Source: an uncultured Planctomycetia bacterium (lineage in GTDB: Bacteria > Omnitrophota > Gorgyraeia > Duberdicusellales > 4484-171). From it: DNA of 64,000 nt. The notes below the pieces were generated by a model that did no database searches, had not been told where the DNA came from, and was given only the letters and a program-made list of their open reading frames with translations. The stretch lies in the NCBI GenBank assembly GCA_964536865.1, contig CAZHYN010000001.1, positions 161,824 to 225,823 of the forward strand, read 5' to 3'. This document shows, in pieces, positions 38,678-59,634 of the stretch (its first letter is position 1; each line of letters starts with the position of its first letter). A program made the translations under genes and the position numbers.

Positions 38678-39067
38678 TTAAGTGTCAATACACTTAATGA
38701 GAGATTGTATAGCTTTTTTATCTTCCTTCTTTATTTGCCAAAATTTTATACCTACTTCAAATAAAGAATTATTTTTATAAAGTAGTTCTTTTTGTTCTAC
38801 CCATACCACTTTACCCTTACAAATGATGGGATGATTTTTTACTGCATAAATCTCTAGGTTCACAAGAGAATGGTTTGTTAGTTTCTTATGAATGACTACT
38901 CTCACTCCTCCCGCACCAATATCTTCAGTATACCCATAGATTAGTGTTTTAGAAGCAGTTATAGTAATTTGACAGGGAAGTTTTATCCTTGCGAATTGTC
39001 TTTTTTCTCCTTTTAGAGTGTTCATATACTCATTTAAAATATAACATATAAACCGTTCTGTTTTCAA
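38678..39067 (-). CDS. PilZ-domain (c-di-GMP-binding) protein
   Basis: RxxxR (RQFAR) and D/NxSxGG (DIGAGGVRV) PilZ motifs. Confidence 0.65.
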   Translation of the reverse strand: MKTERFICYILNEYMNTLKGEKRQFARIKLPCQITITASKTLIYGYTEDIGAGGVRVVIHKKLTNHSLVNLEIYAVKNHPIICKGKVVWVEQKELLYKNNSLFEVGIKFWQIKKEDKKAIQSLIKCIDT

Positions 39068-40653: not shown

Positions 40654-41058
40654 TTACTCCTCTTTCTGAAGTTTTTTATGCCTTCTTAATACCGACTCTA
40701 GCAGAGCCAACCCTTCTTCTAAGGTTCTCCCTTTGTAAAATACACCAGAGATGTGGTAAGGTTCTGCCTCCTTCATCTTTATAGGGTCTATATAAGCACT
40801 TACAATTATAGCAGGAAGGTTTTTATTGAATTCTCTGATTTTTTTGAGGGTTTGAATTCCATCCATTCCAGGTATATTTAAATCCAAAAATATAATGTCA
40901 GGGTTTTCTTCCTTCACTTTCTGGATAGCTTCTTCGCCACTGGTAGCGGTAACGGTAGAGTAACCCTTTGACTGAAACCAAAATGCCATAGGTTGAAGAA
41001 AATCTGCTTCGTCGTCCACCAAAAGGATTTTAATTTCTTTTTCCATATCAACCTCCAT
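40654..41058 (-). CDS. Stand-alone response-regulator receiver domain (CheY-like)
   Basis: ILLVDDE...IFLDLNIPGMDG...IIVSAY; no output domain; overlaps the upstream histidine kinase. Confidence 0.8.
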   Translation of the reverse strand: MEVDMEKEIKILLVDDEADFLQPMAFWFQSKGYSTVTATSGEEAIQKVKEENPDIIFLDLNIPGMDGIQTLKKIREFNKNLPAIIVSAYIDPIKMKEAEPYHISGVFYKGRTLEEGLALLESVLRRHKKLQKEE

Positions 41059-42484
41059 GTCTTTGTCGTTTTAAAGGAATAGTAAAAGTAAATTTAGCTC
41101 CCTCACCCTTCTCACTCTCCGCCCATATTCTTCCTCCGTGGAGATTTACAATTTCTTTAGCAATAGAGAGTCCCAAACCTGTACCAGTTATATCGGTAGG
41201 AGAACGTTCACTCCCTTGATAGAATTTATCAAAAATCTTAGGTAAGTCCTCTTTAGCTATACCTACACCAGTATCTTTTACACTGACTTCTATTTCTCTT
41301 TTATCCTTAGTCACATTAGCCTCTACAGTAACAGTTCCTCCCGAAGGAGTAAATTTGATAGCATTCCCTATAAGATTATTAAGCACCTGTGCAATTCTCT
41401 GAGGATCAATCTCTACTTGGGGGAGTCCAGAGCTAATATTTTTCTCAATCTTGATAGATTTTGTATTTGCCCACCCCCTAAATGATTCTAAGGATTCATC
41501 GATTACCTTGTCTATATGGGAGAGTTCAAATTGCATCCGCATCTTCCCCGCTTCTAGCTTGGACAAATCTAAGAGGTCGTTAATTAATGTACTGAGCCTT
41601 TTGAGATTACGGTCTGCAATAGAAAGGAATTGTTGTTGGGTTTCATTCAAAGGGCCTGTACTCTTATTGAGGAGAAGGGAGATAGCTTTCTCAATTGCCA
41701 CTAAGGGGGTTCTTAACTCGTGAGATACGCTGGCAATAAAGTTAGATTTCATCCTGTCTAGTTCTTTTTGCTTAGTAATATCAGTAAGTACAGAAACCAT
41801 TCCTACTGTTTGACCATTTTCGTTTTCTATGATTGCAGTACTTGCTCTTACTACTTTTTTTGTATCATCGGAGGCGCTCACCAACTCTATCTCTTTTTCT
41901 TTGCCCTCCGGAGTCCCTTTAACTAAGGATACCAGTTGAGTCTCTGATAGGTTTTCTAACAGAGGTTTACCTATCTTCTCTTTGGTAGAAGCTTCCAAAA
42001 GTTTTTCAGCAGCAGGATTCATCATAATGATCTTACCGTGTTTATCTATCACCACTAGGCCTTCAGCAATACTTCTTATCACTGCTTCGGTATTTTTCTT
42101 CTCTGCAGATATTTTCCTGTATTTCTGTAAGGCTATTTCTTCATTACGTTCCTTTTCTTTAATAATTAACTCGTACTTCTTAGTTAATTGCTCCGTACTC
42201 ATACTCACTCTTTTTTCTACCTCCTGATTGAGAATCTGAGAGAGTCTTTTACTTAATCTTTTTCCTTCTTCTTCAGAGTCTACTACGTTTCCTATCTCTT
42301 GGAATATCACTTTTCCTAATTCTTCTTCAGAAGAAAGGGTAGAAGGCGGTTTTCTCTTTCTCTGACTTAAACGAGTTTGTACTTTTGGTTGAGTAGTTAG
42401 TCCTGAGAGATAGATTAGTATTAAAGCAAAAATTATACTTACAACACCAGCAGTTATATATACACTTACAGGTAAAGGAGTCAT
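41048..42484 (-). CDS. Sensor histidine kinase with an N-terminal TM segment and a PAS domain
   Basis: HisKA H-box SHELRTPL, HATPase N/G boxes (NLIGNAIKFT, DTGVGI, GTGLGLSI), PAS-like region. Confidence 0.85.
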   Translation of the reverse strand: MTPLPVSVYITAGVVSIIFALILIYLSGLTTQPKVQTRLSQRKRKPPSTLSSEEELGKVIFQEIGNVVDSEEEGKRLSKRLSQILNQEVEKRVSMSTEQLTKKYELIIKEKERNEEIALQKYRKISAEKKNTEAVIRSIAEGLVVIDKHGKIIMMNPAAEKLLEASTKEKIGKPLLENLSETQLVSLVKGTPEGKEKEIELVSASDDTKKVVRASTAIIENENGQTVGMVSVLTDITKQKELDRMKSNFIASVSHELRTPLVAIEKAISLLLNKSTGPLNETQQQFLSIADRNLKRLSTLINDLLDLSKLEAGKMRMQFELSHIDKVIDESLESFRGWANTKSIKIEKNISSGLPQVEIDPQRIAQVLNNLIGNAIKFTPSGGTVTVEANVTKDKREIEVSVKDTGVGIAKEDLPKIFDKFYQGSERSPTDITGTGLGLSIAKEIVNLHGGRIWAESEKGEGAKFTFTIPLKRQRHGG

Positions 42485-42651
42485 CCACTTTTTAATTTAA
42501 TTCTATAAAAATTCTATCGCCTAAAGTATACTTTTTCAATTATTTTTTACTTTCCTGAGATTTTATAGTATAATTTTCTGTGGCAAAATTAAAAGTTAGT
42601 AAGAAAAGGATTTATCCTTGATATGATTTTATTTCATTTTATAATAAAAAT

Positions 42652-43113: not shown

Positions 43114-43923
43114 TTGAAGAGATGGGGAGTTATTGTACTTACCGTGGGGTTGATTTTTACGGGAGGACTGTCCATTTGCCTAATAGGTAAGAGAAGTCTT
43201 CAAGTTAGTCAAACAAAAAGAGAAGACGTTTCTTCACTAACCAGAGAAGCAGAGGAAGCTCTCAATAAAGGAGATTTTATCGAGGCGAGGAAAATTTTTA
43301 AAAGGATTTTGGAAGAGGTAACAGATATTAAGAAGATTGAAGAGGTGCGAAAAAAACTCGAAGAGATAAATATGAAAATTTTATTTTCTTCTATTATAGA
43401 TGAGTGTAGTAAGGAGTATGTAGTAAAACCCAATGATACTCTGATAAAAATTGCCAAGAGGTTTAATACTACGGTAGAACTGATAAAGAGAGCAAATGGA
43501 TTAACTTCTGATATAATAAAACCTGCTCAGAGACTAAAGGTAAATGTGTGCAAGTTTTCTCTAGTAATAGATAAATCTCAAAACCTTCTCTTCTTAAAAA
43601 GAAATAACGAGGTAATAAAAACCTATATTGTAGCTACAGGAAAGGGTAATTCTACTCCCACAGGAAAATTTAAAATTGTCAACAAGATTAAAAATCCTAC
43701 TTGGTTTAAAACAGGAGCGGTAATTCCTCCTGATAGTCCGCAGAATATTCTAGGTTCCCGATGGTTGGGTTTAGATATCAAAGGTTATGGAATTCATGGC
43801 ACAAAAGAACCAGACAATTTAGGCAAGCAGATCACTTTAGGATGTATTCGCATGACCAATCAAGATGTAGAAGAACTTTATGATATTTTACCCCTAGGTA
43901 CGGAAGTGATAATTGTAGAGTAA
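43114..43923 (+). CDS. LysM domain-containing L,D-transpeptidase (YkuD family)
   Basis: LysM (YVVKPNDTLIKIAKRFNTTVELIKRANGL), YkuD catalytic HGT...GCIRM. Confidence 0.85.
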   Translation: MKRWGVIVLTVGLIFTGGLSICLIGKRSLQVSQTKREDVSSLTREAEEALNKGDFIEARKIFKRILEEVTDIKKIEEVRKKLEEINMKILFSSIIDECSKEYVVKPNDTLIKIAKRFNTTVELIKRANGLTSDIIKPAQRLKVNVCKFSLVIDKSQNLLFLKRNNEVIKTYIVATGKGNSTPTGKFKIVNKIKNPTWFKTGAVIPPDSPQNILGSRWLGLDIKGYGIHGTKEPDNLGKQITLGCIRMTNQDVEELYDILPLGTEVIIVE

Positions 43924-43927
43924 AATT

Positions 43928-44878
43928 ATGCAATACTGGGATTTTGAGAAGCCAATAGTGGAGCTGGAGAATAAGATAAAGGAGTTAGTAGATTTCTCTA
44001 CAGCTAAGCAGATAGATTTGTCTTCAGAAATAGAGAGATTAAAGGAAAAATTAAAAAGTTTAAAAAAAAATATCTATTCTAACCTCACTCCTTGGCAGAA
44101 AGTTCAGATTGCTCGCCATTCTCAGAGACCTACAACTTTAGACTATATAGGGCTTCTGATGGAAGATTTTCTGGAGTTACATGGAGATAGACTTTATGGA
44201 GATGATAAAGCTATCGTCTGTGGTTTAGCTTCCTTAGATAAATTTAGAGTTGTAGTGGTGGGACATCAGAAGGGAAAGGATACTAAAGAGAACATCGAGA
44301 GGAACTTTGGCTGTGCTCACCCTGAGGGGTATCGTAAGGCAATGAGAGTAATGAAGTTAGGAGAGAAGTTTTCTCTTCCTATAATTTGCTTTATTGATAC
44401 CCCAGGAGCTTACCCAGGGATAGGAGCTGAAGAACGTGGTCAGGCCCAGGCTATAGCTGAGAATATTCGAGAGATGTTTACCTTGAATACCCCTATAGTG
44501 ATAGCAGTAATTGGCGAAGGAGGTAGTGGTGGTGCTTTGGGAATCGGGGTAGGAGATAAGGTATTGATTATGGAATATGCTTACTACTCAGTTATTTCTC
44601 CTGAAGGATGCGCAGCAATTCTATGGAAAGATTCTAAAAAGGCTCCCCAGGCAGCAGAAACTTTACGACTTACCGCCCAAGATCTTATAAGGTTTAAAAT
44701 AGTAGATGAGATTATCCCTGAGCCTGAGGGAGGAGCGCATCGTAATTATCAAGAGGCAGCAGATAACTTGAAGGAAACTCTCATAAGAAATCTTGTCTTC
44801 CTTACTGAGATGGATCTAGATACCCTTCTAAAAAATAGGTACGATAAATATCGAAGAATAGGAATCTTTAAAGAATGA
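43928..44878 (+). CDS. accA: Acetyl-CoA carboxylase carboxyltransferase subunit alpha
   Basis: AccA architecture; GGSGGALG oxyanion motif. Confidence 0.9.
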   Translation: MQYWDFEKPIVELENKIKELVDFSTAKQIDLSSEIERLKEKLKSLKKNIYSNLTPWQKVQIARHSQRPTTLDYIGLLMEDFLELHGDRLYGDDKAIVCGLASLDKFRVVVVGHQKGKDTKENIERNFGCAHPEGYRKAMRVMKLGEKFSLPIICFIDTPGAYPGIGAEERGQAQAIAENIREMFTLNTPIVIAVIGEGGSGGALGIGVGDKVLIMEYAYYSVISPEGCAAILWKDSKKAPQAAETLRLTAQDLIRFKIVDEIIPEPEGGAHRNYQEAADNLKETLIRNLVFLTEMDLDTLLKNRYDKYRRIGIFKE

Positions 44879-45399
44879 TTCAGAAACTTGTTATTTTAGG
44901 CCTCCTTAAAAAGAGACCTTCCTCAGGTTACGATATTAAAAAATTTATAGAAAAAGACCTAAAAATATTTACCGATTTGGACACTCATTCCATCTACTAT
45001 CCTTTAAAGAAAATGGAAAAAGAGGGATTCATAAAGAAGAAGATGCTAAAAGGAGAAAAACAGCTTAGAAAATATGTTTACTTTATCACTCCTAAGGGAG
45101 AGAAAGAATTTTTAGCTCTCTGTAGAGAAACTTTATTGTCTCAGAAACGCCCCTTTATCGATTTAGATATCTCTCTCTATTTTCTACCTTTCCTCAGTAA
45201 GGAAGAAATTAAACTTCTCCTTCGTGTAAGGTTGAGGTTTTTAGAGAGGGTAAGGAAGTGGCTTATGAAGAAAAAGAACGAATTTAAAAAGGCTCCTAAA
45301 AATTTACTTCTTCTTATTCAGCATCATTTAAAATTAGCAGGGGCGGAAAAAGAGTTTCTCAAAGATATGATAAGGGCAATAAAGGAAGGGGAGGTATAG
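44875..45399 (+). CDS. PadR-family transcriptional regulator
   Basis: Winged-HTH with a GYDI...YYPLKKMEKEGFI PadR signature; C-terminal helical extension. Confidence 0.75.
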   Translation: MIQKLVILGLLKKRPSSGYDIKKFIEKDLKIFTDLDTHSIYYPLKKMEKEGFIKKKMLKGEKQLRKYVYFITPKGEKEFLALCRETLLSQKRPFIDLDISLYFLPFLSKEEIKLLLRVRLRFLERVRKWLMKKKNEFKKAPKNLLLLIQHHLKLAGAEKEFLKDMIRAIKEGEV

Positions 45400-45405
45400 A
45401 GAAGA

Positions 45406-46731
45406 ATGGATAGGAAGTTATCGTTAAAAGGGGTAAACCTAAAACGACGTATCGCTATAGCAGTTATTTTAATTACTGTTATTCCCTCTCTGGTGTTTGT
45501 ATGTTATATCTATAACTACTACATCTCTAGAGCCGTTCTTCTTATTCTGGGGTTGATTGTATTTCTGGGATGGATGATAGCGTTGGAAGTTTTGTTTTCA
45601 ATCTTGAGAATTCATTCCGAGTCTCAATTAGCTTTAAAGGAATTGGGAGAAGAAAGATTGGCTAAGGATTTAGCAGTTAGAGATGAAGTAGAAGGTTTAG
45701 AGGCTGTATTTAAGCTCATTTCCTCAAAAGTTAAAAGTAGCTTAGAAGAACTTAAAGATCTAAGTAGCAGAATTGAAACATTAAATAAAGAGCTAGCAAA
45801 AAAGATAAATATTCTCTCCACGATTACCCAGATACACTCCTTTATCTCACGAGGAGAACATAGACAGGCGTTCGGTGTTGTTTTAGAGAGATTAAGAGAA
45901 GCTCTAAAGTTAAGTAAAGCAAATCTCTTATTTACAAAGGAGGAAAAACAAGGTTGGGATCTAGAGTACTTTTTTGAGTATGATGAGAGCTTAGAGATTT
46001 TTAAGAAAAAATACAAGGATTTCTTTACTGCTAAAAGTCTCCTTCTTTTAGATGAAGAGCATCGTCAAGAAAGTATTCTATTCTTAAGAGAGAGCTTAGG
46101 ATTGAGGAACCTTTTTGTTTTCCCCCTTCAGTTTAAGGGAGAAGTTGTAGGTGTTCTTGTAGGAGGAAATAACCTTTATGGATTTTCTTTCTCCTCTGAA
46201 GATATAGAATTGATAGAAACACTCTCTAAAAGTATGGTTCTAATATGGGAACATCGGAGGCTTTATAGGATAGTTGAAGATCTGGAGATTTACGATCCTT
46301 TAACAGGCCTTTACAATAAAAAGTACCTTCAAATAAGACTGGATGAAGAAATTAGAAGAGCCACTACCTACCAAAGACCTTGCGGACTGCTTCTTGTAAA
46401 GATAACTAACTACAGAGAAATCCAAGGTAATTTTGGAGTGTTAGAAGGAGAGAGGATATTAAAGAAGATAGGAGAAGTACTTAAGGAGAGTTTAAGACCC
46501 ATAGATATTCCTACACGGGTAGAGGAAGATACTTTAGGTGCTATCCTCATAGAGAGAAATAAGAGACAATCTCAGTATACAGGAATGAATATCATAGAAA
46601 GGTTAAACAGTTATTTCAAAGAAGATAAGTTGAAACCTAAATTTTCATTCTCTGTAGCAGAGAATCCTGTAGATGGAGATGGGGCCCAGAAGCTTATTAG
46701 TTATGCTTTTAGTCACTTAGAAGATAGATGA
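45406..46731 (+). CDS. Membrane-anchored coiled-coil–GAF–degenerate GGDEF domain protein (probable c-di-GMP receptor, not an active cyclase)
   Basis: 2 TM helices; GAF-like region; GGDEF-domain start YDPLTGLYNKKYL; signature is RVEEDTL in place of R-x-GG(D/E)EF; an RxxD (RPID) is retained upstream. Confidence 0.7.
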   Translation: MDRKLSLKGVNLKRRIAIAVILITVIPSLVFVCYIYNYYISRAVLLILGLIVFLGWMIALEVLFSILRIHSESQLALKELGEERLAKDLAVRDEVEGLEAVFKLISSKVKSSLEELKDLSSRIETLNKELAKKINILSTITQIHSFISRGEHRQAFGVVLERLREALKLSKANLLFTKEEKQGWDLEYFFEYDESLEIFKKKYKDFFTAKSLLLLDEEHRQESILFLRESLGLRNLFVFPLQFKGEVVGVLVGGNNLYGFSFSSEDIELIETLSKSMVLIWEHRRLYRIVEDLEIYDPLTGLYNKKYLQIRLDEEIRRATTYQRPCGLLLVKITNYREIQGNFGVLEGERILKKIGEVLKESLRPIDIPTRVEEDTLGAILIERNKRQSQYTGMNIIERLNSYFKEDKLKPKFSFSVAENPVDGDGAQKLISYAFSHLEDR

Positions 46732-47171
46732 GGATAGGTAAGAAGATAAACAAACTCTTAGGAGAAATTCTTGTAGAGAAGAGAATTATTACTAAAGAAC
46801 AGCTTAACGAGGCTTTAAAAGTTCAGGCTCAAGATGGAGGTTTGATTGGAGAGATAATTGTAAAGTTAGGTTTTGCTAGTGAAGAAGAGATTGCCCAATG
46901 TTTGTCTTATCAGTATGGCTTTGCCTACTTACCTTTAGATAGTTATGAGATTTCTCAAGAAGTAATAAGACTCGTTCCTAAGAATATTGTCTCTCATTAT
47001 TGTCTTATTCCATTAGATAGAATAGGAGATACACTTACAGTAGTAATGGCAAATCCCTTAAACTTGGAGGCAATAGAAGATATAGAAGACCTTACTCATC
47101 TAGAGGTGCAAGCTTTTATAAGTACTCCCACAGACATAAGAAATGCTATAAAGAAATACTATGGAGAGTGA
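46728..47171 (+). CDS. Stand-alone MshEN / T2SSE_N domain protein (predicted c-di-GMP binding)
   Basis: Two tandem 24-aa motifs matching the MshEN consensus RLGxxLLxxGxIxxxQLxxALxxQ: KLLGEILVEKRIITKEQLNEALKVQ and LIGEIIVKLGFASEEEIAQCLSYQ; translationally coupled on both sides. Confidence 0.7.
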   Translation: MRIGKKINKLLGEILVEKRIITKEQLNEALKVQAQDGGLIGEIIVKLGFASEEEIAQCLSYQYGFAYLPLDSYEISQEVIRLVPKNIVSHYCLIPLDRIGDTLTVVMANPLNLEAIEDIEDLTHLEVQAFISTPTDIRNAIKKYYGE

Positions 47172-48870
47172 GAAGTTAAAAAAAAGTTTTCCTCAAGTTC
47201 TTTTGGAGAAAGGAGAAATTACTCAAAAACAACTAAAGGAGGCTATAAGGTTTCAAAAGGAGAAGGGATGTTCTTTAAACGAAGCCTTTTTAAGTCTTGG
47301 ATACATAGATGAAAAGAAACTTTTGCTCCTTCTTTCCGCATATCTTTCTACACCCCCTATAAAAGTTCTGAATTTAAACATCCCCCCCCAAGTATTAAAA
47401 CTTATTCCTCAAGAAGTTGCTGTAAAGTATCAGTTAATTCCTATTGGAAGGATAGGGAATGTTCTCTCTGTAGCTATGGCTGATCCTTTAAATGTGGTAG
47501 CTTTAGATGATGTAGAGAGGATTACTAAGTGTCAGATAAATCCTGTGGTAGCACTAAGAAGTGAAATTAAGGAAGCAATAGATAATAACTACAGAAAATC
47601 CCTTGTTGATACGGTAGAAGAGATAATAAAGAACACTGAAATTGGTTCTATAGAGGTAATAAAGGAAGAGAAGGAAGCAGTAAAAGATGAGGAGATTTTG
47701 CGTTCTTTAGAAGAAGCGCCAGTAATTAAATTTTCCAACTATATTTTAAAGAGAGCGGTAGAAGAGAAAGCCTCCGATGTTCTTATAGAACCTTTATCTA
47801 AAAGTTCTCGCATACGCTTTAGAGTAGATGGGGTGTTAAGAGAGATAGAGTCTTTCTCCCGAAAGATGCATGAGTTTGTTGTTTCTCGAATAAAGGTTAT
47901 AGCCAATTTGAATATTACTGAACATCGCCTTCCTCAGGATGGAAGGTTCCGGATGAATATTTTGGGTAGAGAGGTAGATTTTCGTGTTTCTATTCTTCCT
48001 TCAGTTTTGGGAGAGAAAGTTGTTCTTCGTGTTTTAGATAAATCTCAAGGGTTATTGGACTTAGATAGCTTAGGATTTGAAGAAAGTTTAATCTCTCAGT
48101 TGAAGATTGATTCCGCCTCTTCTTGTGGAATGATTTTAGTATGTGGTCCTACTGGGTGCGGTAAAACCACCACTCTTTACTCTATTTTAAGGTACATCTA
48201 TACTCCAGAAAAAAATATTATTACCGTAGAAGACCCTATAGAGTATCAACTTCTTGGGATAAATCAGGTCAATGTTAACTATGAGGTAGGGCTCACCTTT
48301 GCTAATGCTCTCCGTTCTATACTAAGACAGGATCCCGATGTAATAATGGTAGGAGAGATTAGAGATTTTGATACTGTAGATATTGCTATAAAGGCAGCGT
48401 TAACAGGACATCTAGTTATATCTACTCTTCATACCACTACCGCAGTTGGTTCAGTAACTCGTCTTATAAATATGGGAGTTGAACCTTTTCTTTTGTCTTC
48501 CACTCTTATCGGTGTTCTTGCTCAGAGGTTAATAAGAAAGTTATGCCCTCATTGTCGAGAGGAAAGCAAGCTTAGCAGTTCCTTGAAAGAGAAGTATAAG
48601 ATTTCTCCCGATGCTACTATTTACAAACCTAAGGGATGTAAGTTTTGTTTTCACCAGGGATATAGAGGAAGATTAGCTTTAGGAGAGTATTTGCATGTAG
48701 ATTCTCAAATCAAGAGGTTGATAAGTATTTCTGCTGATGAGCATACTCTTAAGAAAGAGGCAAGAAAAGGAGGGATGAAAACTTTGCGAGATAATGGGAT
48801 ACAAAAAGTAGAAAAAGGATTAACTAGTTTAGAAGAAGTCCTAAAAGCTACTGGAGAAGAGATTGAGTAA
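47161..48870 (+). CDS. pilB: Type IV pilus / T2SS assembly ATPase (PilB/GspE/MshE family)
   Basis: N-terminal T2SSE_N domain, Walker A GPTGCGKTTT, Asp/His boxes, tetracysteine CPHC...CKFC. Confidence 0.9.
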   Translation: MESEKLKKSFPQVLLEKGEITQKQLKEAIRFQKEKGCSLNEAFLSLGYIDEKKLLLLLSAYLSTPPIKVLNLNIPPQVLKLIPQEVAVKYQLIPIGRIGNVLSVAMADPLNVVALDDVERITKCQINPVVALRSEIKEAIDNNYRKSLVDTVEEIIKNTEIGSIEVIKEEKEAVKDEEILRSLEEAPVIKFSNYILKRAVEEKASDVLIEPLSKSSRIRFRVDGVLREIESFSRKMHEFVVSRIKVIANLNITEHRLPQDGRFRMNILGREVDFRVSILPSVLGEKVVLRVLDKSQGLLDLDSLGFEESLISQLKIDSASSCGMILVCGPTGCGKTTTLYSILRYIYTPEKNIITVEDPIEYQLLGINQVNVNYEVGLTFANALRSILRQDPDVIMVGEIRDFDTVDIAIKAALTGHLVISTLHTTTAVGSVTRLINMGVEPFLLSSTLIGVLAQRLIRKLCPHCREESKLSSSLKEKYKISPDATIYKPKGCKFCFHQGYRGRLALGEYLHVDSQIKRLISISADEHTLKKEARKGGMKTLRDNGIQKVEKGLTSLEEVLKATGEEIE

Positions 48871-48887
48871 GGCCTAAGAGGTAACTT

Positions 48888-50576
48888 ATGGAGTCTTTAA
48901 GAGAAAGAATACTTAAGGATGTTGTAGAAAGAAAAGGGGTAGATAAGAGTATTCTAGATAGGATTAATAAAGAATCAAAGAATATCTATCAACTGAAAGA
49001 GAATCTCATTAAGAATAACATAGTCAGCGAAGAAGAGATTTTACTTATTTTCTCTAAGGAGCTTAAGATTCCCTTTTTTGATTTGGGGAAATATAAGGTT
49101 TCTTCAGAAAATAAGGAGATAATACCCAAAGAGTTAGCCTTTAAATATAAAGTATTTCCCATATCTAAGATAGGAGAGGTATTAACCTTAGCTACAGCTA
49201 ATCCTCTAGATGTTGTAGCCATTGATGATATAAAGATGGTTTGCTCCTTAAACAGAGTGGAGCTAGTATTGGCGAAGGAGGAGGAGATTATAAGATTCCT
49301 AGATGAGCTTTATTCTCAAGAAAAGATTTTTCCTCTTTTAGAGGAGGCTCCGCAAGATGCAGAGGTTCAAGAGGTCTCTTATAAGGGAGAGGAGAGTTTA
49401 GAGAAAGTTATTAAGGAAAGTAATCTCCCCCCTATTATAAGAGTGGTGGATTTGATTATCTACGAAGGATTAAAGAGGAGGGCTTCCGATATCCATATAG
49501 AGCCTACAGAAAAAGATTTATCTATAAGGTATAGGATAGATGGAGTTCTTCATCATGGTTTGAGTCTTCCTAAGATTAATCAAAATGCTATTTTGGCGAG
49601 ACTGAAGATTATGTCTTCTTTAAATATTACTGAGTTCAGGGTTCCTCAGGATGGAAGATTTAAAATAAAATTTGAAAATAGGGAGATAGATTTTAGAGTT
49701 TCGTCTCTTCCCACTGATTTTGGAGAGAAGATAGTGTTAAGGGTTTTAGATAAAGAGAGCCTCTCCTTAGGGCTCAAAAACTTAGGTTTTTCTCCCAGAC
49801 CTTTAAAGTTATTTGAAGAAGCCTTAAAAGCCCCCTTTGGCATAATTCTTGTTACTGGCCCTACGGGCAGTGGTAAGTCTACCACCCTTTACTCAGTAAT
49901 CACCCAACTAAATACTCCGGACAAAAGTATTATCACTATAGAGGATCCTGTAGAGTATCAAATAGAGGGCATTACTCAAATTCAAGTAAATCCTGAAATC
50001 GGCCTTACCTTTGCTTCCTGTTTAAGGAGTGTATTGCGTCAGTCTCCTGATATAATAATGGTAGGAGAAATTCGAGACTCAGAAACTGCTGATATTGCTA
50101 TTAAAGCTTCTCTTACAGGAGAATTAATATTTTCTACCTTGCATACCAATAACTCTGTGGGAGCAATTACTCGGTTAGTGGATATGGGAGTGGAGCCATT
50201 TTTGGTGGCTTCTTCTTTAATCGCTTCTACTGCTCAGAGGCTAACAAGAAGAGTCTGCCCCAAGTGTAAGGAGGAGTATAAACCCGATAAGGAGCTATTA
50301 AAGAGAATTAACTTTCCTCCTTTTTCAGGGAAGTTATATAAGGGTAAGGGCTGTGAGTTCTGTCATTATACTGGCTATAGGGGGAGGACAGCACTTTTAG
50401 AAGTTTTTTCCTTAGATGATAGTTTAAGAGAGATGGTGGCAAAGAGAGCTAGTGAAGAGGAGTTAACTAATTATGCCCGCAAGCATCGCGATTTTAGCTC
50501 ACTAAAAGAAGATGGGTTTATAAAATGTATTGAGGGGGTATCGAGTTTAGAGGAAGTTTTAAGGGTAGCAGGTTAG
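48888..50576 (+). CDS. Second PilB/GspE-family assembly ATPase, a paralog
   Basis: Walker A GPTGSGKSTT, CPKC...CEFC zinc motif; about 50% identical to the upstream ATPase in the core. Confidence 0.9.
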   Translation: MESLRERILKDVVERKGVDKSILDRINKESKNIYQLKENLIKNNIVSEEEILLIFSKELKIPFFDLGKYKVSSENKEIIPKELAFKYKVFPISKIGEVLTLATANPLDVVAIDDIKMVCSLNRVELVLAKEEEIIRFLDELYSQEKIFPLLEEAPQDAEVQEVSYKGEESLEKVIKESNLPPIIRVVDLIIYEGLKRRASDIHIEPTEKDLSIRYRIDGVLHHGLSLPKINQNAILARLKIMSSLNITEFRVPQDGRFKIKFENREIDFRVSSLPTDFGEKIVLRVLDKESLSLGLKNLGFSPRPLKLFEEALKAPFGIILVTGPTGSGKSTTLYSVITQLNTPDKSIITIEDPVEYQIEGITQIQVNPEIGLTFASCLRSVLRQSPDIIMVGEIRDSETADIAIKASLTGELIFSTLHTNNSVGAITRLVDMGVEPFLVASSLIASTAQRLTRRVCPKCKEEYKPDKELLKRINFPPFSGKLYKGKGCEFCHYTGYRGRTALLEVFSLDDSLREMVAKRASEEELTNYARKHRDFSSLKEDGFIKCIEGVSSLEEVLRVAG

Positions 50577-51798: not shown

Positions 51799-52239
51799 AT
51801 GAAGGATAATTTTACTCTGGTAGAAGTTATGATTGTGGTAGGGATTTTGGTACTTTTAACTGTTCTAGTAGTTCCTAATATTTTAAGAGCCCGCATTACT
51901 GCTAACGAAGTAGGAGCAATTACTTCCTTAAAAACTGTCTTTTCCTCTGCTCAAATTTATAAAAATATCAACTCTGTCTACCCTTCCTCTTTAGGAGATT
52001 TAGGAGATGCTAATCCCCCTTATATTGAGGAAGAGTTAAGCTGTAATGACCAACCTTGTCCCAAACAAGGGTACAATTTCACTCTTACTGGCTCGGAGTA
52101 CTCTTTCTATGCGGTAGCCTCTCCTCAGATTTTTGGCTTCACCGGGATAAGAAGTTTCTACATAGACGAAAATGGCCTAGTTAAGTACTGTGATACCGCT
52201 GATTGTGATCCTTCCCAGGGGATAATCCTTCAAGAGTAG
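51799..52239 (+). CDS. Type IV (pseudo)pilin with a class III signal peptide
   Basis: MKDNFTLVEVMIVVGILVLL: G|FTLVE cleavage and N-methylation motif with Glu5; C-terminal Cys pair. Confidence 0.8.
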   Translation: MKDNFTLVEVMIVVGILVLLTVLVVPNILRARITANEVGAITSLKTVFSSAQIYKNINSVYPSSLGDLGDANPPYIEEELSCNDQPCPKQGYNFTLTGSEYSFYAVASPQIFGFTGIRSFYIDENGLVKYCDTADCDPSQGIILQE

Positions 52240-52256
52240 AGGAGAATTTCTAGCCA

Positions 52257-52285
52257 TTGAAAAATACCTCCAGGTATGCTATATT
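52257..52285 (+). promoter_or_regulatory. sigma70-like promoter (TTGAAA -17- TATATT) immediately after the first pilin gene, driving the structured RNA
   Basis: TTGAAA at 52257-52262, 17-nt spacer, TATATT at 52280-52285. Confidence 0.4.
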
Positions 52286-52291
52286 TTAGGT

Positions 52292-52552
52292 AGACAATCT
52301 TGGGAACGAGAAAGGCAAACTCAGGGTAACCTGGGGACCCGCGAAAGCGGCTATTTACCTAACTGGGTAAATAGGCAAAGCCGTGCGTCCCGCTCTTTCT
52401 AAAACCCAGATTAACAGGGGTTTGAAGTTAAAGTGCATAAGGGATGCAGAGGCAGGTAAACTGCAGGATTTAACTAGAAATATGAAAAGGGCGGGATAGG
52501 CAGGTTGCCGAATTCCTAAAAATACCCAGGTAGGTTATTACCTGGGTTTTTT
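52292..52552 (+). ncRNA. Candidate structured RNA with GEMM-I (c-di-GMP-I riboswitch)-like core motifs, ending in an intrinsic terminator
   Basis: GC-rich island in AT-rich DNA; AGGCAAAC–[TCAGG-GTAA-CCTGG GNRA hairpin]–GGGAC...GCGAAAGCGG (GAAA hairpin)...9-bp hairpin CTATTTACC/GGTAAATAG...GGCAAAGCC; this resembles the GGCAAAC–P2(GNRA)–GGGAC–GCAAAGC core of GEMM-I as I recall the consensus; bounded by the promoter at 52257 and the terminator at 52524-52552. Confidence 0.4.
52524..52552 (+). terminator. Rho-independent terminator (8–9-bp stem CCCAGGTA/TACCTGGG followed by T6)
   Basis: Stem 52525-52532 / 52539-52546, loop GGTTAT, then TTTTTT. Confidence 0.6.
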
Positions 52553-52573
52553 AATAGAGAGGGGGGGTAAATA

Positions 52574-52601
52574 TTGACATTTCTTCAGATTGTGGTATAG
52601 T
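52574..52601 (+). promoter_or_regulatory. sigma70-like promoter (TTGACA -16- TATAGT) upstream of the second pilin
   Basis: TTGACA at 52574-52579 and TATAGT at 52596-52601; RBS AAGGGGGTGAGG before the ATG at 52637. Confidence 0.4.
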
Positions 52602-52636
52602 TAAAAATGGTTTATCAAGAAGAAAGGGGGTGAGGA

Positions 52637-53032
52637 ATGAGGAAAGGTTTTACTTTGGTAGAAATTATGATTGTTGTAGCAATCATCGCCCTTTTGGCAG
52701 CTATTGCTATTCCTAACCTGCTAAGAGCTCGTATCACCGCTAATGAAAGTGCTGCTCAGGCAAACTTAAGAACTATCTCTACTGCTTTAGAAAATTATGC
52801 AGCTGCTAACAACGGAAGTTATGCCACTGACGAGAGTCAACTTACCGATGCTACTCCTCCTTACTTGAATCAATCCTTCTGTGGCAATACTATTCAAGGG
52901 TATACTTACTCTTGTACCCTTGCTGCTACTGGATACACAGTAACCGCTACTCCTGCATCCTGTGGGACGAGTGGAACAAAGACTTATACTATAACAACTG
53001 GTGGTGTTTTATCTTCAGCGGATTGCTCTTAA
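52637..53032 (+). CDS. pilA: Type IV major pilin (PilA-like), a paralog of the 51799 gene
   Basis: MRKGFTLVEIMIVVAIIALLAAIAIPNLLRARITANE class III signal; C-terminal disulfide-loop cysteines; followed by a strong terminator. Confidence 0.85.
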   Translation: MRKGFTLVEIMIVVAIIALLAAIAIPNLLRARITANESAAQANLRTISTALENYAAANNGSYATDESQLTDATPPYLNQSFCGNTIQGYTYSCTLAATGYTVTATPASCGTSGTKTYTITTGGVLSSADCS

Positions 53033-53056
53033 CGAATCAAGGTAGGATATCTTTAG

Positions 53057-53092
53057 CCCCCTCTCTTCGAAAAGAGAGGGGGTATTTTATTT
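53057..53092 (+). terminator. Rho-independent terminator (11-bp GC-rich stem CCCCCTCTCTT/AAGAGAGGGGG followed by a T-run)
   Basis: Stem 53057-53067 / 53072-53082, 4-nt loop, then TATTTTATTT. Confidence 0.7.
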
Positions 53093-53102
53093 AAGAGGAA
53101 AG

Positions 53103-53453
53103 ATGTTAGTTAAAGCTTATACTCTAGGAGAAGTATTGGTGGCAGGAGCAATTATTTTAATTTGTGTAGCTGGTCTTCTTTTTCTCTTTGTTACTTGTAG
53201 ATTTTTAAATGATTTCAACAGTAACCTTGTTACTGCTGCCTCTGATGCGCAAACAGTGCTAGAGCAGATAAAAGATCTTAGCTATTCTCAGATAGGAAGT
53301 TATACTCCTCCTCAGTTTAATCACTTACCTGAGGAAAATGTTACTCTTACAACCTCCTCACAAAATAGATTGACGGAGGTGACGGTAAATGTCAACTGGA
53401 CAGAGAGAGGTCAGAAGAGAACTTTCACACTCAAGACATATTTTTCTCCCTAA
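53103..53453 (+). CDS. Minor pilin / pseudopilin-like protein with an atypical prepilin motif (Ala at -1)
   Basis: MLVKA|YTLGEVLVAGAIILICVAGLL: Glu at +5 and a hydrophobic helix as in class III signals, but Ala replaces the usual Gly at -1. Confidence 0.5.
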   Translation: MLVKAYTLGEVLVAGAIILICVAGLLFLFVTCRFLNDFNSNLVTAASDAQTVLEQIKDLSYSQIGSYTPPQFNHLPEENVTLTTSSQNRLTEVTVNVNWTERGQKRTFTLKTYFSP

Positions 53454-53967
53454 ACTAAAGGGGGTTACTCTAGTGGAAGTTCTCATCGTTACGGCAGTTA
53501 TGTCAACAATTTTTGCTAGTTTATTTTATGTGCTTACACAGGGGTACCTCTCTAATGAAATTGGGTTAGCAAAGCTAAAACTTCAAGAGGAAGCAAGGAG
53601 GGCGATAGAGGTTATAGGAAAGGATGTTCGTCAGACTACGGTAAGTGAAATCAAAAGTAATAATCCTTCCAGCTCTCACCTTAAGTTTCGTATTTATCAA
53701 GATTACTCTGGAGGTAATCCTCAATGGAGTAGTAACTATATCGAGTATACTTATGATGCCAATTCTTATAAACTTCAACGTACCGATTATAACTCAAATA
53801 TTACCACCTACTTTTATAACATAGCTAGCCCCCCTTTTGATGTTGAAGAGTTAATTAACAATAACGAAAATAAAATAAGTATCGATTTAAATATGCAAGA
53901 GACAGTGAAAGGTTCTTTACCGATAAATTTTTCTTTAACAGGAGAGGTGACCATACGCAATGAGTAA
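53389..53967 (+). CDS. Minor pilin-like protein; start uncertain (either a long 25-aa leader from the ATG at 53389 or a non-canonical start near 53440)
   Basis: ...PKLKG|VTLVEVLIVTAVMSTIFASL prepilin motif with Gly -1 and Glu +5; no ATG/GTG/TTG lies between the upstream stop and the motif; the ORF from the ATG at 53389 overlaps the previous gene by 65 nt. Confidence 0.45.
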   Translation: MSTGQREVRRELSHSRHIFLPKLKGVTLVEVLIVTAVMSTIFASLFYVLTQGYLSNEIGLAKLKLQEEARRAIEVIGKDVRQTTVSEIKSNNPSSSHLKFRIYQDYSGGNPQWSSNYIEYTYDANSYKLQRTDYNSNITTYFYNIASPPFDVEELINNNENKISIDLNMQETVKGSLPINFSLTGEVTIRNE

Positions 53968-54862
53968 AAAGGGAGTAGCTCTTCTTTTAGCCCTTTTGAT
54001 TCTAGCAGTTCTAGGTATTCTAGGAAGTTCACTTTTTATAAGTAGTTTAACAGAGAGCAACCTAACGAAGAGAGATATAAGAGGGAAAAGAGCCTTTTGG
54101 GCAGCGGAGTCAGGAATTTCTAAAGGGATAGAAAAGTTAAAAGAATGTGTACAAAGTGGTGATTGCCAGGTAAGCGGGACTATAGATTATGAAAATGAGA
54201 GTTATTCCTATTCTGCTACTATTTCCGTATTAGATAGCCTAAATTATCGTATAGATTCCTCAGGTTCTTTAGGTCAGATAACTAAGAATATTTCTGCAGT
54301 TGTAAGGTTGAGAGATATCGATGCTAATAATTTTCCTTATGCTATAGAAACTGAGGGTCTTTTGGAGATCGGAGGAAATGCTCAGATAACTCCTTCTGAT
54401 AGCACCAAAGAGCAATCATCTTTAGATTTTAATAGTCTGTTTACTTTTACTAAGGAAGAATTAAAGTCTTACGCTGATTACACCTATACGGATCCTCCCA
54501 ATAATATCACTCCTTGTGAGGGCATCACTTGGGTAGATGTATCTCCTGAGGATGAGTTTAGAATAACTTCAGATAGTTGGGAAGGTAGTGGTATTCTTGT
54601 GATTGAAGGCAATGTTAAAATAACTGGAGGGAGATTCCGAGGGATAATATATATTATTGGGGGGCAGTTAGAGGTACCTTTAGAGGTAGCAGCAGGTAAC
54701 CCCATCATAGAGGGAGCTATCCTAGTGGAATGCATACCCACTAGTACTACTCGCATAAGAGGAGATTTTACTTTGAATTATGATCTCGATGCTATCAACG
54801 AAGCTTTGGATAATTTAAGATTTATTGCTCCTCGAATAGTAGCGTGGTGGGAAGGTAGTTAA
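53960..54862 (+). CDS. PilX-like minor pilin / pilus assembly protein (PilX_N-type N-terminus)
   Basis: MSKKGVALLLALLILAVLGILGSSLF resembles the PilX N-terminal domain (RGxALxxALxxLxxLxxLG); large variable C-terminal domain. Confidence 0.55.
   Translation: MSKKGVALLLALLILAVLGILGSSLFISSLTESNLTKRDIRGKRAFWAAESGISKGIEKLKECVQSGDCQVSGTIDYENESYSYSATISVLDSLNYRIDSSGSLGQITKNISAVVRLRDIDANNFPYAIETEGLLEIGGNAQITPSDSTKEQSSLDFNSLFTFTKEELKSYADYTYTDPPNNITPCEGITWVDVSPEDEFRITSDSWEGSGILVIEGNVKITGGRFRGIIYIIGGQLEVPLEVAAGNPIIEGAILVECIPTSTTRIRGDFTLNYDLDAINEALDNLRFIAPRIVAWWEGS
54088..54348. repeat. 261-bp segment 100% identical to 55010-55270 (copy 1, inside the first PilX-like gene)
   Basis: Read base by base; identity begins at AAGAGCC... 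and ends at ...GCTATAGA; the flanks diverge. Confidence 0.9.
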
Positions 54863-54884
54863 AAGAGTTTGGGGTGAATAAAGG

Positions 54885-55769
54885 ATGAGAAAAGCCATCG
54901 CCTTAATTTTTAGCCTTTTAGTAATGGCAGTTCTATTTATAATTGGGCAGTCCTTTTTCACTCAGACCTTAAATGGAAGTAACTTAGTGAAAAGATATGT
55001 AACCTCCTTAAGAGCCTTTTGGGCAGCGGAGTCAGGAATTTCTAAAGGGATAGAAAAGTTAAAAGAATGTGTACAAAGTGGTGATTGCCAGGTAAGCGGG
55101 ACTATAGATTATGAAAATGAGAGTTATTCCTATTCTGCTACTATTTCCGTATTAGATAGCCTAAATTATCGTATAGATTCCTCAGGTTCTTTAGGTCAGA
55201 TAACTAAGAATATTTCTGCAGTTGTAAGGTTGAGAGATATCGATGCTAATAATTTTCCTTATGCTATAGAGAGTCAGGGAGCGATTGAGGTAAAGGGAAG
55301 TGCTCAGATAACTCCTTCTGATAGTAAAAAGGAGAATAGCGATTTAGATTTTAAAAGTTTATTTGGTTTTACTAAGGATGAACTAAAGAGTTATGCTACC
55401 TACTATTACCAGGATCCTCCCAATAATGTGGAGCCGGTTGAGGATATAACTTGGGTGGAGCTCTCTGAAGGAAAAGAACTTAGGATTACTTCTAACAATT
55501 GGGAAGGTAGTGGCATTCTGATAATTAATGGGGATGCTAAAATAACAGGTGGGGAGTTTGAAGGAATAATTTATGTGATTGGAGAGTTGGAAGTGCCTGC
55601 AGGCAATCCTACGGTAGAGGGGACCATTTTGGTAGAAGGAGACCCTTCAGAGACTACAAGTTTGAGAGGTAATTTTGAGTTAGACTACGATACAGAGGCA
55701 ATAGATGAAGCCTTGAATAACTTAAGATATGTGGCTCCTCAAACTGTAGCTTGGTGGCAAACTTATTAG
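54885..55769 (+). CDS. PilX-like protein, tandem paralog
   Basis: MRKAIALIFSLLVMAVLFIIGQSF; the C-terminal half is about 60% identical to the upstream paralog, and an internal 87-aa block is 100% identical. Confidence 0.55.
   Translation: MRKAIALIFSLLVMAVLFIIGQSFFTQTLNGSNLVKRYVTSLRAFWAAESGISKGIEKLKECVQSGDCQVSGTIDYENESYSYSATISVLDSLNYRIDSSGSLGQITKNISAVVRLRDIDANNFPYAIESQGAIEVKGSAQITPSDSKKENSDLDFKSLFGFTKDELKSYATYYYQDPPNNVEPVEDITWVELSEGKELRITSNNWEGSGILIINGDAKITGGEFEGIIYVIGELEVPAGNPTVEGTILVEGDPSETTSLRGNFELDYDTEAIDEALNNLRYVAPQTVAWWQTY
55010..55270. repeat. 261-bp segment 100% identical to 54088-54348 (copy 2, inside the second PilX-like gene)
   Basis: As above. Confidence 0.9.
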
Positions 55770-55811
55770 TACCAGGGGATTAAATTGACTTTTTTCTTAA
55801 TTAATGTAAGA

Positions 55812-55845
55812 TAGTTTAAAGGTGAAATTAGTTTAAAGGTGAAAT
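55812..55845. repeat. 17-bp perfect tandem duplication (TAGTTTAAAGGTGAAAT x2) containing the RBS and GTG start of pilM
   Basis: Copies at 55812-55828 and 55829-55845; the first copy's GTG runs into an immediate TAA. Confidence 0.85.
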
Positions 55846-56849
55846 TAGCTCAGTTACTAAAAAAGAAAATTAGTGAATGGAACGAAAAGACCAAAAGGCT
55901 ATTTGCCTATGAAGAGAAAGATTTTGTTTCTCTTGACTTAGGAGCTAGGTACTTAAAGGGAGCTTTAGTTAAGGATGGTAAGATTGGGGAGTTATTTATA
56001 GAAAAAAAAGGAGAGTCAGCTTCAGCGATTGACTTTTTGAAGAGCAAAGGAGTCCTTTCTAAAGAAGTTAAATTTGCCATAAAAGGGCCTGAAACCCTTA
56101 TAAGATATATTCCCTTCCCTAAAGTAGAGAAAGGTAAGTTAAAAGAGGTTTTTGGCTACGAACTATCAAAGTACATCCCTTTTTCTCCTGAGGATGTATA
56201 CTTTGATATTTCTATCCTCGATGAGAATTATTCTAAAGATGAGTTTTTGATACTTCTTGCTGTAGCAAAGAAAGAGTTTATTGATTCTCTCCTTTCTCCT
56301 TTTCGAGAAAGAAAAGTGGAGGTTAAAGAGATTTCTCTGAGTAATTTAGCTCTCTTGAATCTTTTTTTTCACTGTAAAGAAAAAAAAGCTTCTAACACTG
56401 CTATAATAGATTTAGGGTTTTCTTCCACCCTTCTTAATCTAGTAAAGGGAGAAATGCCTTATTTAAGTAGAGAGATTAAAGTCGGTTGTTTTCACCTTAT
56501 AGAGAAGATATCTTTAGTTAAGAATTTATCTCATGATAAGGCGGAGGAGTGGTTAGTTACCTCCTCCCAAGTTGACGAACTTCTTAAGATAGGAGAAGAG
56601 CCACTATGGGAACTTTCTCGAGAGGTAAAAAGTTCTCTCGATTACTTTGAGATGAATGTAGGAGAGAATGTAGAGGAGTTTTATCTTACGGGAGGAGCCT
56701 CTTCTGTAGAAAGTGTTAGAGAAGTGATTAGTAAGTCTTTAGGAGTTAAGTTAATTCTTTGGGATGTGGCAAAGACTTTAGATATAAAAGTTAAGAGCTT
56801 CTCTTTTCCTCTTCAAATGTTTTCTCCAGTGATAGGTTTAAGCCTATGA
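55839..56849 (+). CDS. pilM: Type IV pilus assembly protein PilM-like (actin/FtsA-like fold)
   Basis: Position and size in the pilMNOPQ order; N-terminal LDLGARYLKGALV resembles a PilM/FtsA phosphate-1 motif; GTG start. Confidence 0.6.
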   Translation: MKLAQLLKKKISEWNEKTKRLFAYEEKDFVSLDLGARYLKGALVKDGKIGELFIEKKGESASAIDFLKSKGVLSKEVKFAIKGPETLIRYIPFPKVEKGKLKEVFGYELSKYIPFSPEDVYFDISILDENYSKDEFLILLAVAKKEFIDSLLSPFRERKVEVKEISLSNLALLNLFFHCKEKKASNTAIIDLGFSSTLLNLVKGEMPYLSREIKVGCFHLIEKISLVKNLSHDKAEEWLVTSSQVDELLKIGEEPLWELSREVKSSLDYFEMNVGENVEEFYLTGGASSVESVREVISKSLGVKLILWDVAKTLDIKVKSFSFPLQMFSPVIGLSL

Positions 56850-57409
56850 AGAAGATATTTATTAATCTTTGTCCTGAGGGAGGAAAGAGAGAAAATAAAA
56901 TACTCCTTTCTGCCCAAAAATACGCCTCTTTTGCCCTTCTGTTATTAATTTTATGTATAGGCATAAATGTTATATTTTTTGTGTTGGGAGCTTTTCTTCA
57001 GCTTCCCTATAGGAAATTAAGTGCTCGTTGGCAGCAACTAACTCCTCAAGTTAACTCTATTCTTTCCCTAAGGAAAGAAGTGCAAGCTCTAACTAAAGAG
57101 AGAGAGGAGTATAAGACTTTATTCCAAGAAAGTATTTCTCTCTCTAGAGTGTTTGCCGAAGTATATGAGTCACTTCCTAAAAATATTTGGTTTGAGACAA
57201 TAAAGTTTAAAGGCGATGCTATTGAGTTTGTAGGATATGTAGTAAAGTGGAAAGAAGATTATTTTGATTCTCTAAATAAATTTATTAAGAATTTAAAAAA
57301 TAAGACTTACTTTAGTACTGTCTTTAAGAAAATTAATCTAAAAAACTCTCGCAAAGGCAGGATAGCTAGTAGAGAAATTTTAAAATTTGAAGTAGAATGC
57401 AAAAAATGA
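56846..57409 (+). CDS. pilN: PilN-like bitopic inner-membrane pilus assembly protein
   Basis: Single N-terminal TM helix followed by a coiled-coil; synteny. Confidence 0.5.
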   Translation: MKKIFINLCPEGGKRENKILLSAQKYASFALLLLILCIGINVIFFVLGAFLQLPYRKLSARWQQLTPQVNSILSLRKEVQALTKEREEYKTLFQESISLSRVFAEVYESLPKNIWFETIKFKGDAIEFVGYVVKWKEDYFDSLNKFIKNLKNKTYFSTVFKKINLKNSRKGRIASREILKFEVECKK

Positions 57410-58274: not shown

Positions 58275-58275
58275 G

Positions 58276-59628: not shown

Positions 59629-59634
59629 GATATT

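Follow-up and report, generated by a model that had tools for sequence, protein, structure and literature searches.

A free-standing MshEN protein as a candidate trans-acting c-di-GMP receptor in a type IV pilus operon of Candidatus Omnitrophota

The 64-kb stretch of DNA analysed here (the window; G+C content ~35 %) comes from a Candidatus Omnitrophota bacterium and carries a type IV pilus operon. Its proteins are 92–99 % identical to those of a Candidatus Omnitrophota metagenome-assembled genome from the Guaymas Basin (L001 among the related loci compared below). The genes under study encode a degenerate GGDEF protein, a free-standing MshEN protein, two extension ATPases and the platform protein that comes next in the operon:

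45406–46731, + strand: membrane-anchored degenerate GGDEF protein, 441 aa
46728–47171, + strand: free-standing MshEN protein without an ATPase domain, 147 aa
47161–48870, + strand: PilB1, a full-length PilB/GspE-type extension ATPase, 569 aa
48888–50576, + strand: PilB2, a second full-length PilB/GspE-type ATPase, 562 aa
50584–51789, + strand: PilC platform protein, the next gene of the operon (Pfam T2SSF, 2.2e-61)

The GGDEF gene and the 147-aa gene are joined by an ATGA stop/start overlap at 46728–46731, and the 147-aa gene and PilB1 overlap by 11 nt (47161–47171) in differing frames. Both junctions were read from the sequence and are as claimed in an initial annotation of this DNA. At the second junction ATGGAGAGTGA contains the start of PilB1 as well as the stop that ends the 147-aa open reading frame (ORF).

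Profile searches assigned residues 63–146 of the 147-aa protein to Pfam MshEN (PF05157; 2.7e-20) and residues 11–62 to the NCBIfam model NF053729 'c-di-GMP_motif' (64.9 bits), a 53-residue model of the motif that binds cyclic di-GMP (c-di-GMP), with a curated cutoff of 38 bits. An AlphaFold2 (AF2) model based on 34 family members (predicted local distance difference test, pLDDT, 91) has four helices followed by a beta/alpha subdomain. Its top Foldseek match was 5HTL, Vibrio MshE with c-di-GMP (TM-score 0.82–0.86), and the next matches were the GSPII domains of Thermus PilF and the N-terminal domain of Xanthomonas PilB. The protein thus contains both the four-helix bundle of MshEN_N and the T2SSE_N1 alpha/beta subdomain, and the proposal that it consists essentially of an MshEN/T2SSE_N domain alone was borne out by profile scores and fold match alike. 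The domain calls of the initial annotation for GGDEF and MshEN/T2SSE_N also held when the Pfam profiles were run.

Six key residues have been listed for each MshEN motif, namely R1, L2, G3, L17, L21 and Q24 (Wang et al., PMC5013675). In the 147-aa protein, motif 1 (residues 10–33) and motif 2 (residues 39–62) are separated by the five-residue spacer AQDGG, and L2, G3, L17, L21 and Q24 are present in both, with a conservative I for L at 40 and 55. The description of two 24-residue consensus motifs therefore stands for their presence and for five of the six key residues in each, but not for position 1, which is Leu in both. The first motif string quoted in that description was 25 residues long rather than 24, the motif itself beginning at L10.

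The overlap of the 147-aa ORF and PilB1 by 11 nt in differing frames, together with the existence of ATPases with tandem MshEN domains, raises the possibility that the ORF is an artefact, in which a PilB N-terminus was split by a sequencing or assembly frameshift at 47161–47171. A protein search with the 147-aa protein returned 225 homologues, of which the 120 listed were 135–204 aa long and contained PF05157 only; those listed with an organism name were Omnitrophota. Related loci were also selected, through their similarity to the free MshEN protein, from collections of genomes and metagenomes. Of 89, one was deltaproteobacterial and was excluded; the window proteins then served to annotate the other 88, all of which lie in Omnitrophota or on unnamed metagenome contigs. 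The free gene was called separately in these 88 independent loci, with a spacing to PilB1 that varies from overlaps to 398 nt, and PilB1 of the window is full length with its own complete N-domain, 32 % identical to the free protein. Given the homologue lengths and the complete PilB1 N-domain, a split gene was rejected as an explanation, with a residual probability that is negligible, and the 147-aa gene is regarded as real, as first annotated.

Gene order is conserved across these loci. The gene immediately downstream of free MshEN is PilB1 in 67 of the 71 loci with enough sequence, and PilB2 and PilC then follow. On the upstream side, at least 58 of 74 loci have a GGDEF gene (37 directly, 21 after a PilT-like ATPase gene); a further nine have a PilT-like gene upstream and then the contig end, and seven have other genes. 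The PilT-like ATPase (354 aa, T2SSE 4.6e-47) sits between the GGDEF and free MshEN genes in one subclade (for example at L045:6918–7982, L037:2212–3276 and L052:6921–7985); no PilT homologue was found in the 64-kb window. A second free MshEN gene with an intact tandem motif occurs between PilB2 and PilC in four loci (L004:11949–12416, L005:12010–12474, L008:11992–12444 and L077:14116–14577). Such a gene is absent from the window, where PilC begins 8 nt past the end of PilB2.

Both ATPases of the window matched T2SSE (7.3e-135 for PilB1 and 9.7e-132 for PilB2) and have MshEN N-domains (3.4e-20 and 1.4e-19, respectively), so that the second full-length PilB paralogue of the initial annotation was recovered with an N-domain of its own. 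The two proteins are 43 % identical. Their scores on TIGR02538 (PilB) and TIGR02533 (GspE), ~585–591 bits, do not reach the equivalog cutoffs and assign them to neither subtype. Each has the full motif set of Walker A, Asp box, Walker B, His box and tetracysteine motif. Walker A and the Asp box occur in 46/46 PilB1 and 36/36 PilB2 orthologues, and the other three motifs in most. As the catalytic motifs are kept, PilB1 and PilB2 are both predicted to be active ATPases.

The N-domains of the ATPases differ from the free protein at the positions that contact the ligand. PilB1 scored 35.5 bits on NF053729, under the cutoff of 38, and PilB2, whose N-terminal helical bundle is more degenerate, had no match. 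In PilB1 of the window G3 is replaced by Pro in motif 1 and by Asn in motif 2, and Q24 of motif 2 by Tyr; in PilB2 G3 is Leu in motif 1 and Lys in motif 2. These losses agree with the earlier observation that the PilB1 N-domain only partly matches the motif. The N-domains of orthologues were aligned to a profile of the free MshEN family and residues were counted at ligand-contact positions:

Free MshEN (n=90): G3 of motif 1 in 90/90; G3 of motif 2 in 90/90; Q24 of motif 2 in 90/90; all ten core residues in 87/90
PilB1 (n=46): G3 of motif 1 in 4/46, mostly Thr; G3 of motif 2 in 1/46, mostly Ser or Val; Q24 of motif 2 in 0/46; all ten core residues in none
PilB2 (n=36): G3 of motif 1 in 0/36; G3 of motif 2 in 11/36; Q24 of motif 2 in 7/36; all ten core residues in none

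Both motif glycines were kept in 0/82 PilB1 and PilB2 N-domains, and neither ATPase of the window has an intact tandem motif in its N-domain. In Vibrio MshEN, the G11L variant bound c-di-GMP to no detectable degree in isothermal titration calorimetry (PMC5013675 supplement), and c-di-GMP gave no shift in melting temperature with G11L or G40I, which is consistent with poor or no binding (PMC5013675).

These counts bear on whether the 147-aa protein needs a ligand at all. It could be a structural or assembly subunit that works independently of c-di-GMP, such as an extra N-domain supplied in trans, as in ATPases of the (MshEN)2-3-T2SSE type, with the conserved motif residues serving only to maintain the four-helix bundle. 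PilB N-domains do keep the fold and the match to the motif model without the glycines, multi-MshEN ATPases with non-binding copies exist (for example PilF with GSPII-A), and the T2SSE_N1 half of the free protein is highly conserved as well. However, the free protein differs from the PilB N-domains at ligand contacts (both G3 residues and Q24 of motif 2) and not in the core that determines the fold, and G3 and Q24 are near-invariant in 90 orthologues while they have been lost in paralogous domains with the same fold. A purely structural role is considered unlikely.

In the protein encoded by the upstream gene, two hydrophobic helices at the N-terminus lead into a long coiled-coil helix, behind which lie GAF and GGDEF domains. 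The Pfam GGDEF match (6.4e-22) covers residues 295–434, and the GAF match is marginal (22.6 bits, cutoff 22.4). In the AF2 model (pLDDT 82), helices at residues 12–35, 42–79 and 94–148 precede GAF at ~152–293 and GGDEF at 297–440, in line with the transmembrane–coiled-coil–GAF–GGDEF architecture first proposed. The A-site reads EEDTL (residues 373–377, nt 46522–46536), and upstream of it the I-site RPID (residues 364–367, nt 46495–46506) is followed by IPTRV. In an alignment to the solved GGDEF domain 6D9M, RPID falls on RxxD and EEDTL on GGDEF, and K332 and T334 occupy the positions of both Asp residues of the D-x-D metal site. This confirms the description of a lost A-site beside a kept I-site and leaves no intact motif hidden by misalignment. 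The protein has neither the GG(D/E)EF A-site nor the metal-binding Asp residues of active diguanylate cyclases, and judged from its sequence the catalytic site is dead.

Orthologues of this protein show the same pattern. GG[DE]EF was found in 0/65 orthologues from the protein database, in which the A-site is hypervariable (EEDTL, QENQL, GPNKL, GLNRL and others). The [RK]xxD motif, mostly RPID, was kept in 56/65, so that the RxxD five residues upstream of the former A-site appears to be under selection. GGDEF and D-x-D are intact, and RxxD is missing, in four of the 40 orthologues taken from the loci (L002:1484–2776, L045:5484–6899, L051:2334–3809 and L083:1589–3010), and these belong to the clade with the PilT-like gene. 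An A-site that is free to vary, an RxxD that is kept and GGDEF-keeping orthologues that are without RxxD fit a switch of function to the I-site, and the gene at the operon head has apparently turned from a cyclase linked to the operon into an I-site receptor.

The degenerate GGDEF protein might instead be a decayed enzyme that persists as a membrane scaffold or GAF-based sensor, with RPID conserved for structural reasons. The second arginine of the I-site (R402 in PelD, R390 in PleD) could not be placed with confidence: the basic residues nearby are R or K at alignment position 397 (25/40 orthologues) and R399 of the window protein, without a confident structural equivalence to the PelD and PleD residues. 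The 50 Foldseek matches listed for the model were ordinary GAF/PHY-GGDEF cyclases and included no PelD entry, and one clade has no GGDEF gene at all. A protein in simple decay is harder to reconcile with five A-site residues that vary freely next to an RxxD, five residues upstream, that is kept in 56/65 orthologues, or with orthologues that keep GGDEF and are without RxxD. We regard this alternative as doubtful, though clearly less so than a structural role for the 147-aa protein.

The reading judged most likely, and held with moderate confidence, is that the 147-aa protein acts as a trans-acting c-di-GMP receptor for the PilB1/PilB2 motor, beside a membrane-anchored I-site receptor. In such an arrangement the extension ATPases would have ceded c-di-GMP sensing to two dedicated receptors, the products of the genes just upstream. 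The 147-aa protein would bind one c-di-GMP in its four-helix bundle and, in its liganded or unliganded form, would dock on the PilB1/PilB2 motor or on the PilM/PilC platform and so gate pilus extension. Both ATPases have kept the MshEN-fold N-domain and all ATPase motifs but not both ligand-contacting glycines. The transmembrane–coiled-coil–GAF–GGDEF protein, derived from a diguanylate cyclase, would, like PelD, serve as a c-di-GMP receptor or scaffold anchored in the membrane, and in sister clades the operon-head gene with an intact GGDEF would provide a local source of c-di-GMP. Starting from the genes, domains, fold, residue patterns and conserved gene order observed, we infer the ligand binding, the protein partners and the choice between activation and inhibition. 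The residue patterns suggest that c-di-GMP control of the pilus may have been handed to a detachable subunit. A more specific version is more tentative and falls somewhat short of an even chance: a split relay in which a diffusible, arginine-free, high-affinity MshEN subunit, common to two non-sensing active ATPases, would be combined with a membrane I-site receptor derived from the operon's own cyclase.

Several observations weigh against a trans-acting receptor or limit it. The consensus Arg of motif position 1 is Leu in both motifs of the 147-aa protein (L10 and L39), where the aligned PilB and PilF references have Arg; across the free MshEN family, Q, P, L and K occur at position 10, and 85/90 proteins have Leu at position 39. 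The Arg that begins a motif stacks on guanine. The GSPII-B domain of Thermus PilF, with Lys and Leu at this position, binds c-di-GMP with a dissociation constant (KD) of 6 nM and has been described as the first c-di-GMP-binding domain independent of arginine (PMC11731258). Arg at position 1 is thus not strictly required, and by analogy its absence from the 147-aa motifs probably does not matter. The glycine variants drawn on from PMC5013675 are bulky (G11L, G40I), with no Gly-to-Ser or Gly-to-Thr among them. At E≤1e-9, NF053729 matched 39/46 PilB1 and 15/35 PilB2 N-domains. These domains have therefore kept the helical bundle, and some PilB proteins may have weak residual c-di-GMP binding. With 34/34 free MshEN proteins also matched, NF053729 separated sensor from non-sensor poorly; it was discarded as a discriminator, and the residue-level counts were relied on for this reason. 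Free MshEN was more conserved than both ATPases in 31/33 loci (median identity 58 % vs 52–53 %), a difference inflated by the choice of loci for their similarity to free MshEN, which biases the figures for gene order as well. The clade without a GGDEF gene has mreD-pbp2-rodA upstream instead. The distance between the free MshEN gene and PilB1, based on ORF calls, is variable enough that translational coupling is common but not universal, and no active cyclase or phosphodiesterase was seen in the 64-kb window.

In a variant of the trans-acting receptor, nothing changes but the sign of the effect and its target. The 147-aa protein would bind c-di-GMP but serve as a decoy or competitive inhibitor at the PilM/PilC docking site, or as a buffer of c-di-GMP. 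It has the same N1 subdomain as the ATPases, the homologous N1 domain of GspE contacts GspL in the solved complexes 2BH1 and 4PHT, and in some loci a second free MshEN gene lies next to PilC. No observation speaks directly against this variant, though buffering would leave the strict adjacency to PilB1 unexplained. This variant is considered improbable, to the same degree as a structural role.

Only two c-di-GMP receptor domains have a broad distribution among bacteria, and MshEN is one of them; the little-studied PA3740 apart, work on it has dealt with larger proteins that contain it. An exhaustive search of 1.84 billion representatives of 50 %-identity clusters yielded 20,931 MshEN relatives (E≤0.001). 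The 150 best of these included 34 single-domain proteins of 145–190 aa, nearly all with a recognisable motif, and many tandem arrays, so that free-standing forms can be called common in metagenomes. When a profile search was seeded with more distant free forms, the named matches were nearly all Omnitrophota. PilZ–MshEN fusions of ~285 aa, with two types of c-di-GMP receptor domain in one chain, and one MshEN–REC protein were also observed (P0359, P0364, P0366 and P0381), themselves without an organism name. In the literature searched, no description of a free-standing MshEN in a pilus operon was found, nor anything specific on the regulation of Omnitrophota pili. The MshEN architecture table of 2016 contains many fusions, and PA3740 is the only near-stand-alone form in it (PMC5013675 supplement). 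The initial annotation had called the arrangement unusual, which is correct by comparison with model organisms and with the 2016 list, from which it is absent; within Omnitrophota it is the norm for the pilus operon.

The free MshEN protein, conserved across the phylum and encoded in the pilus operon, alone among the operon's products has all of the ligand-contact residues. If the proposed reading is true, the free-standing MshEN proteins that are abundant in Omnitrophota would constitute a general class of c-di-GMP adaptors that act in trans and could be likened to single-domain PilZ proteins. The operon-head gene is of interest in its own right, as a single orthologous gene spans the range from an intact GGDEF without RxxD to a dead A-site with a conserved RxxD, the latter a probable I-site receptor. 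Omnitrophota are uncultured and often have very small cells, and host-dependent lifestyles have been suggested for them; control of the pilus therefore bears on their ecology. As the proteins are small and soluble, the hypothesis is directly testable in vitro.

The rest of the pilus cluster and the genes upstream of the operon are as follows:

51799–60432, + strand: remainder of the pilus cluster, with pilin-like genes first (Pfam matches; pilin-type N-termini from translations)
55839–56849, + strand: PilM (Pfam)
56846–57409, + strand: PilN (Pfam)
57397–57942, + strand: PilO (Pfam)
58276–59628, + strand: secretin (Pfam)
59635–60432, + strand: ExeA/MshM-like AAA_22 ATPase, directly after the secretin
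43114–45399: PadR regulator (Pfam 4.5e-12) and two other genes, tightly packed against the GGDEF gene
38678–39067, 40654–41058 and 41048–42484, − strand: PilZ-domain protein, receiver-domain protein and PAS histidine kinase, a few kb upstream

An ExeA/MshM-like accessory gene is typical of MSHA-type pilus loci and of some type II secretion loci. The GGDEF gene had been taken as the first gene of the pilus locus, which is probably not so for transcription: the PadR gene ends 6 nt 5' of it, and the best promoter-like site lies further upstream at 42618–42645. In a promoter and terminator scan of the window the number of promoter-like sites equalled chance expectation, and operon boundaries are for this reason only weakly hinted at. 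The pilus genes may be co-transcribed with PadR or regulated by it. The two other genes at 43114–45399 presumably encode a LysM/L,D-transpeptidase-like protein, as read from its translation, and AccA, a label given from its sequence. All or part of this upstream set recurs in L001, L015, L019, L021, L030 and L035.

The PilZ-domain protein encoded upstream is free-standing (7.8e-16) and has RQFAR and DIGAGG motifs, which is further evidence that the organism uses c-di-GMP. No c-di-GMP riboswitch or other regulatory RNA was found in the window, in which the sole Rfam match was a tRNA. Within the cluster, a gene for a 131-aa pilin (52637–53032) has its own strong promoter-like site (52574–52601; 11/12, extended −10 TG) and is followed by a terminator-like hairpin with a 12-bp stem at 53056–53083, with another hairpin at 52524–52547; this fits a separately and highly expressed major pilin. 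A direct repeat of 300 nt (54088–54387 and 55010–55309, 95 % identical) sits within tandem paralogous genes (53960–54862 and 54885–55769) whose products have pilin-like signal sequences and share ~90 identical aa. It looks like a recent duplication or gene conversion.

Among known systems, the N-domain of Vibrio cholerae MshE (5HTL) resembles the 147-aa protein in its two-subdomain fold, at the TM-scores given above, and in its tandem 24-residue motifs with a five-residue spacer and L/G/L/L/Q contacts, and it likewise belongs to a type IV pilus system. It differs in being fused to its ATPase, where the window has a separate protein, and in having Arg at position 1, where both window motifs have Leu; identity is only ~27 %. 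Thermus thermophilus PilF GSPII-B (8PDK; PMC11731258) is also of the MshEN type without Arg and shares Leu at position 1 of motif 2, and PilF carries binding and non-binding MshEN copies on one motor. Its three domains and ATPase form one polypeptide, whereas in the window the predicted binding copy is separate and there are two ATPase paralogues. Pseudomonas aeruginosa PA3740 is the sole entry in the architecture table (PMC5013675 supplement) that consists solely of MshEN_N and a divergent N1 subdomain. It is listed there among proteins with experimentally established c-di-GMP binding and is involved in swarming motility. Its N1 subdomain is described as highly divergent, and the likeness to the 147-aa protein is one of description alone.

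PelD family membership of the degenerate GGDEF protein was rejected, as the protein has no PelD-specific Pfam match and the fold matches listed were ordinary GAF/PHY-GGDEF cyclases. PelD is membrane-anchored. In Pseudomonas aeruginosa and Bacillus cereus it likewise combines GAF and degenerate GGDEF domains, binds c-di-GMP at an RxxD I-site and exerts post-translational control over a neighbouring envelope machine (PMC7112168). That machine synthesizes polysaccharide and is not a pilus, and no homology was detectable beyond the shared domains, so the resemblance is functional and architectural only.

The closest parallel in logic is the FimX–PilZ–PilB relay of Xanthomonas and Pseudomonas, in which a separate receptor and adaptor carry the c-di-GMP signal to PilB (PMC8389850, PMC5595344); in the solved Xanthomonas structures 7LKM and 7LKO, PilZ is bound to the N-terminal domain of PilB. 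The proteins of the relay are unrelated to those described here, and the window operon has no EAL or PilZ component. A trans-acting MshEN receptor for PilB1 and PilB2, if it operates as proposed, would thus be analogous in logic to the FimX–PilZ–PilB relay and to the extra GSPII domains of PilF, built from different parts.

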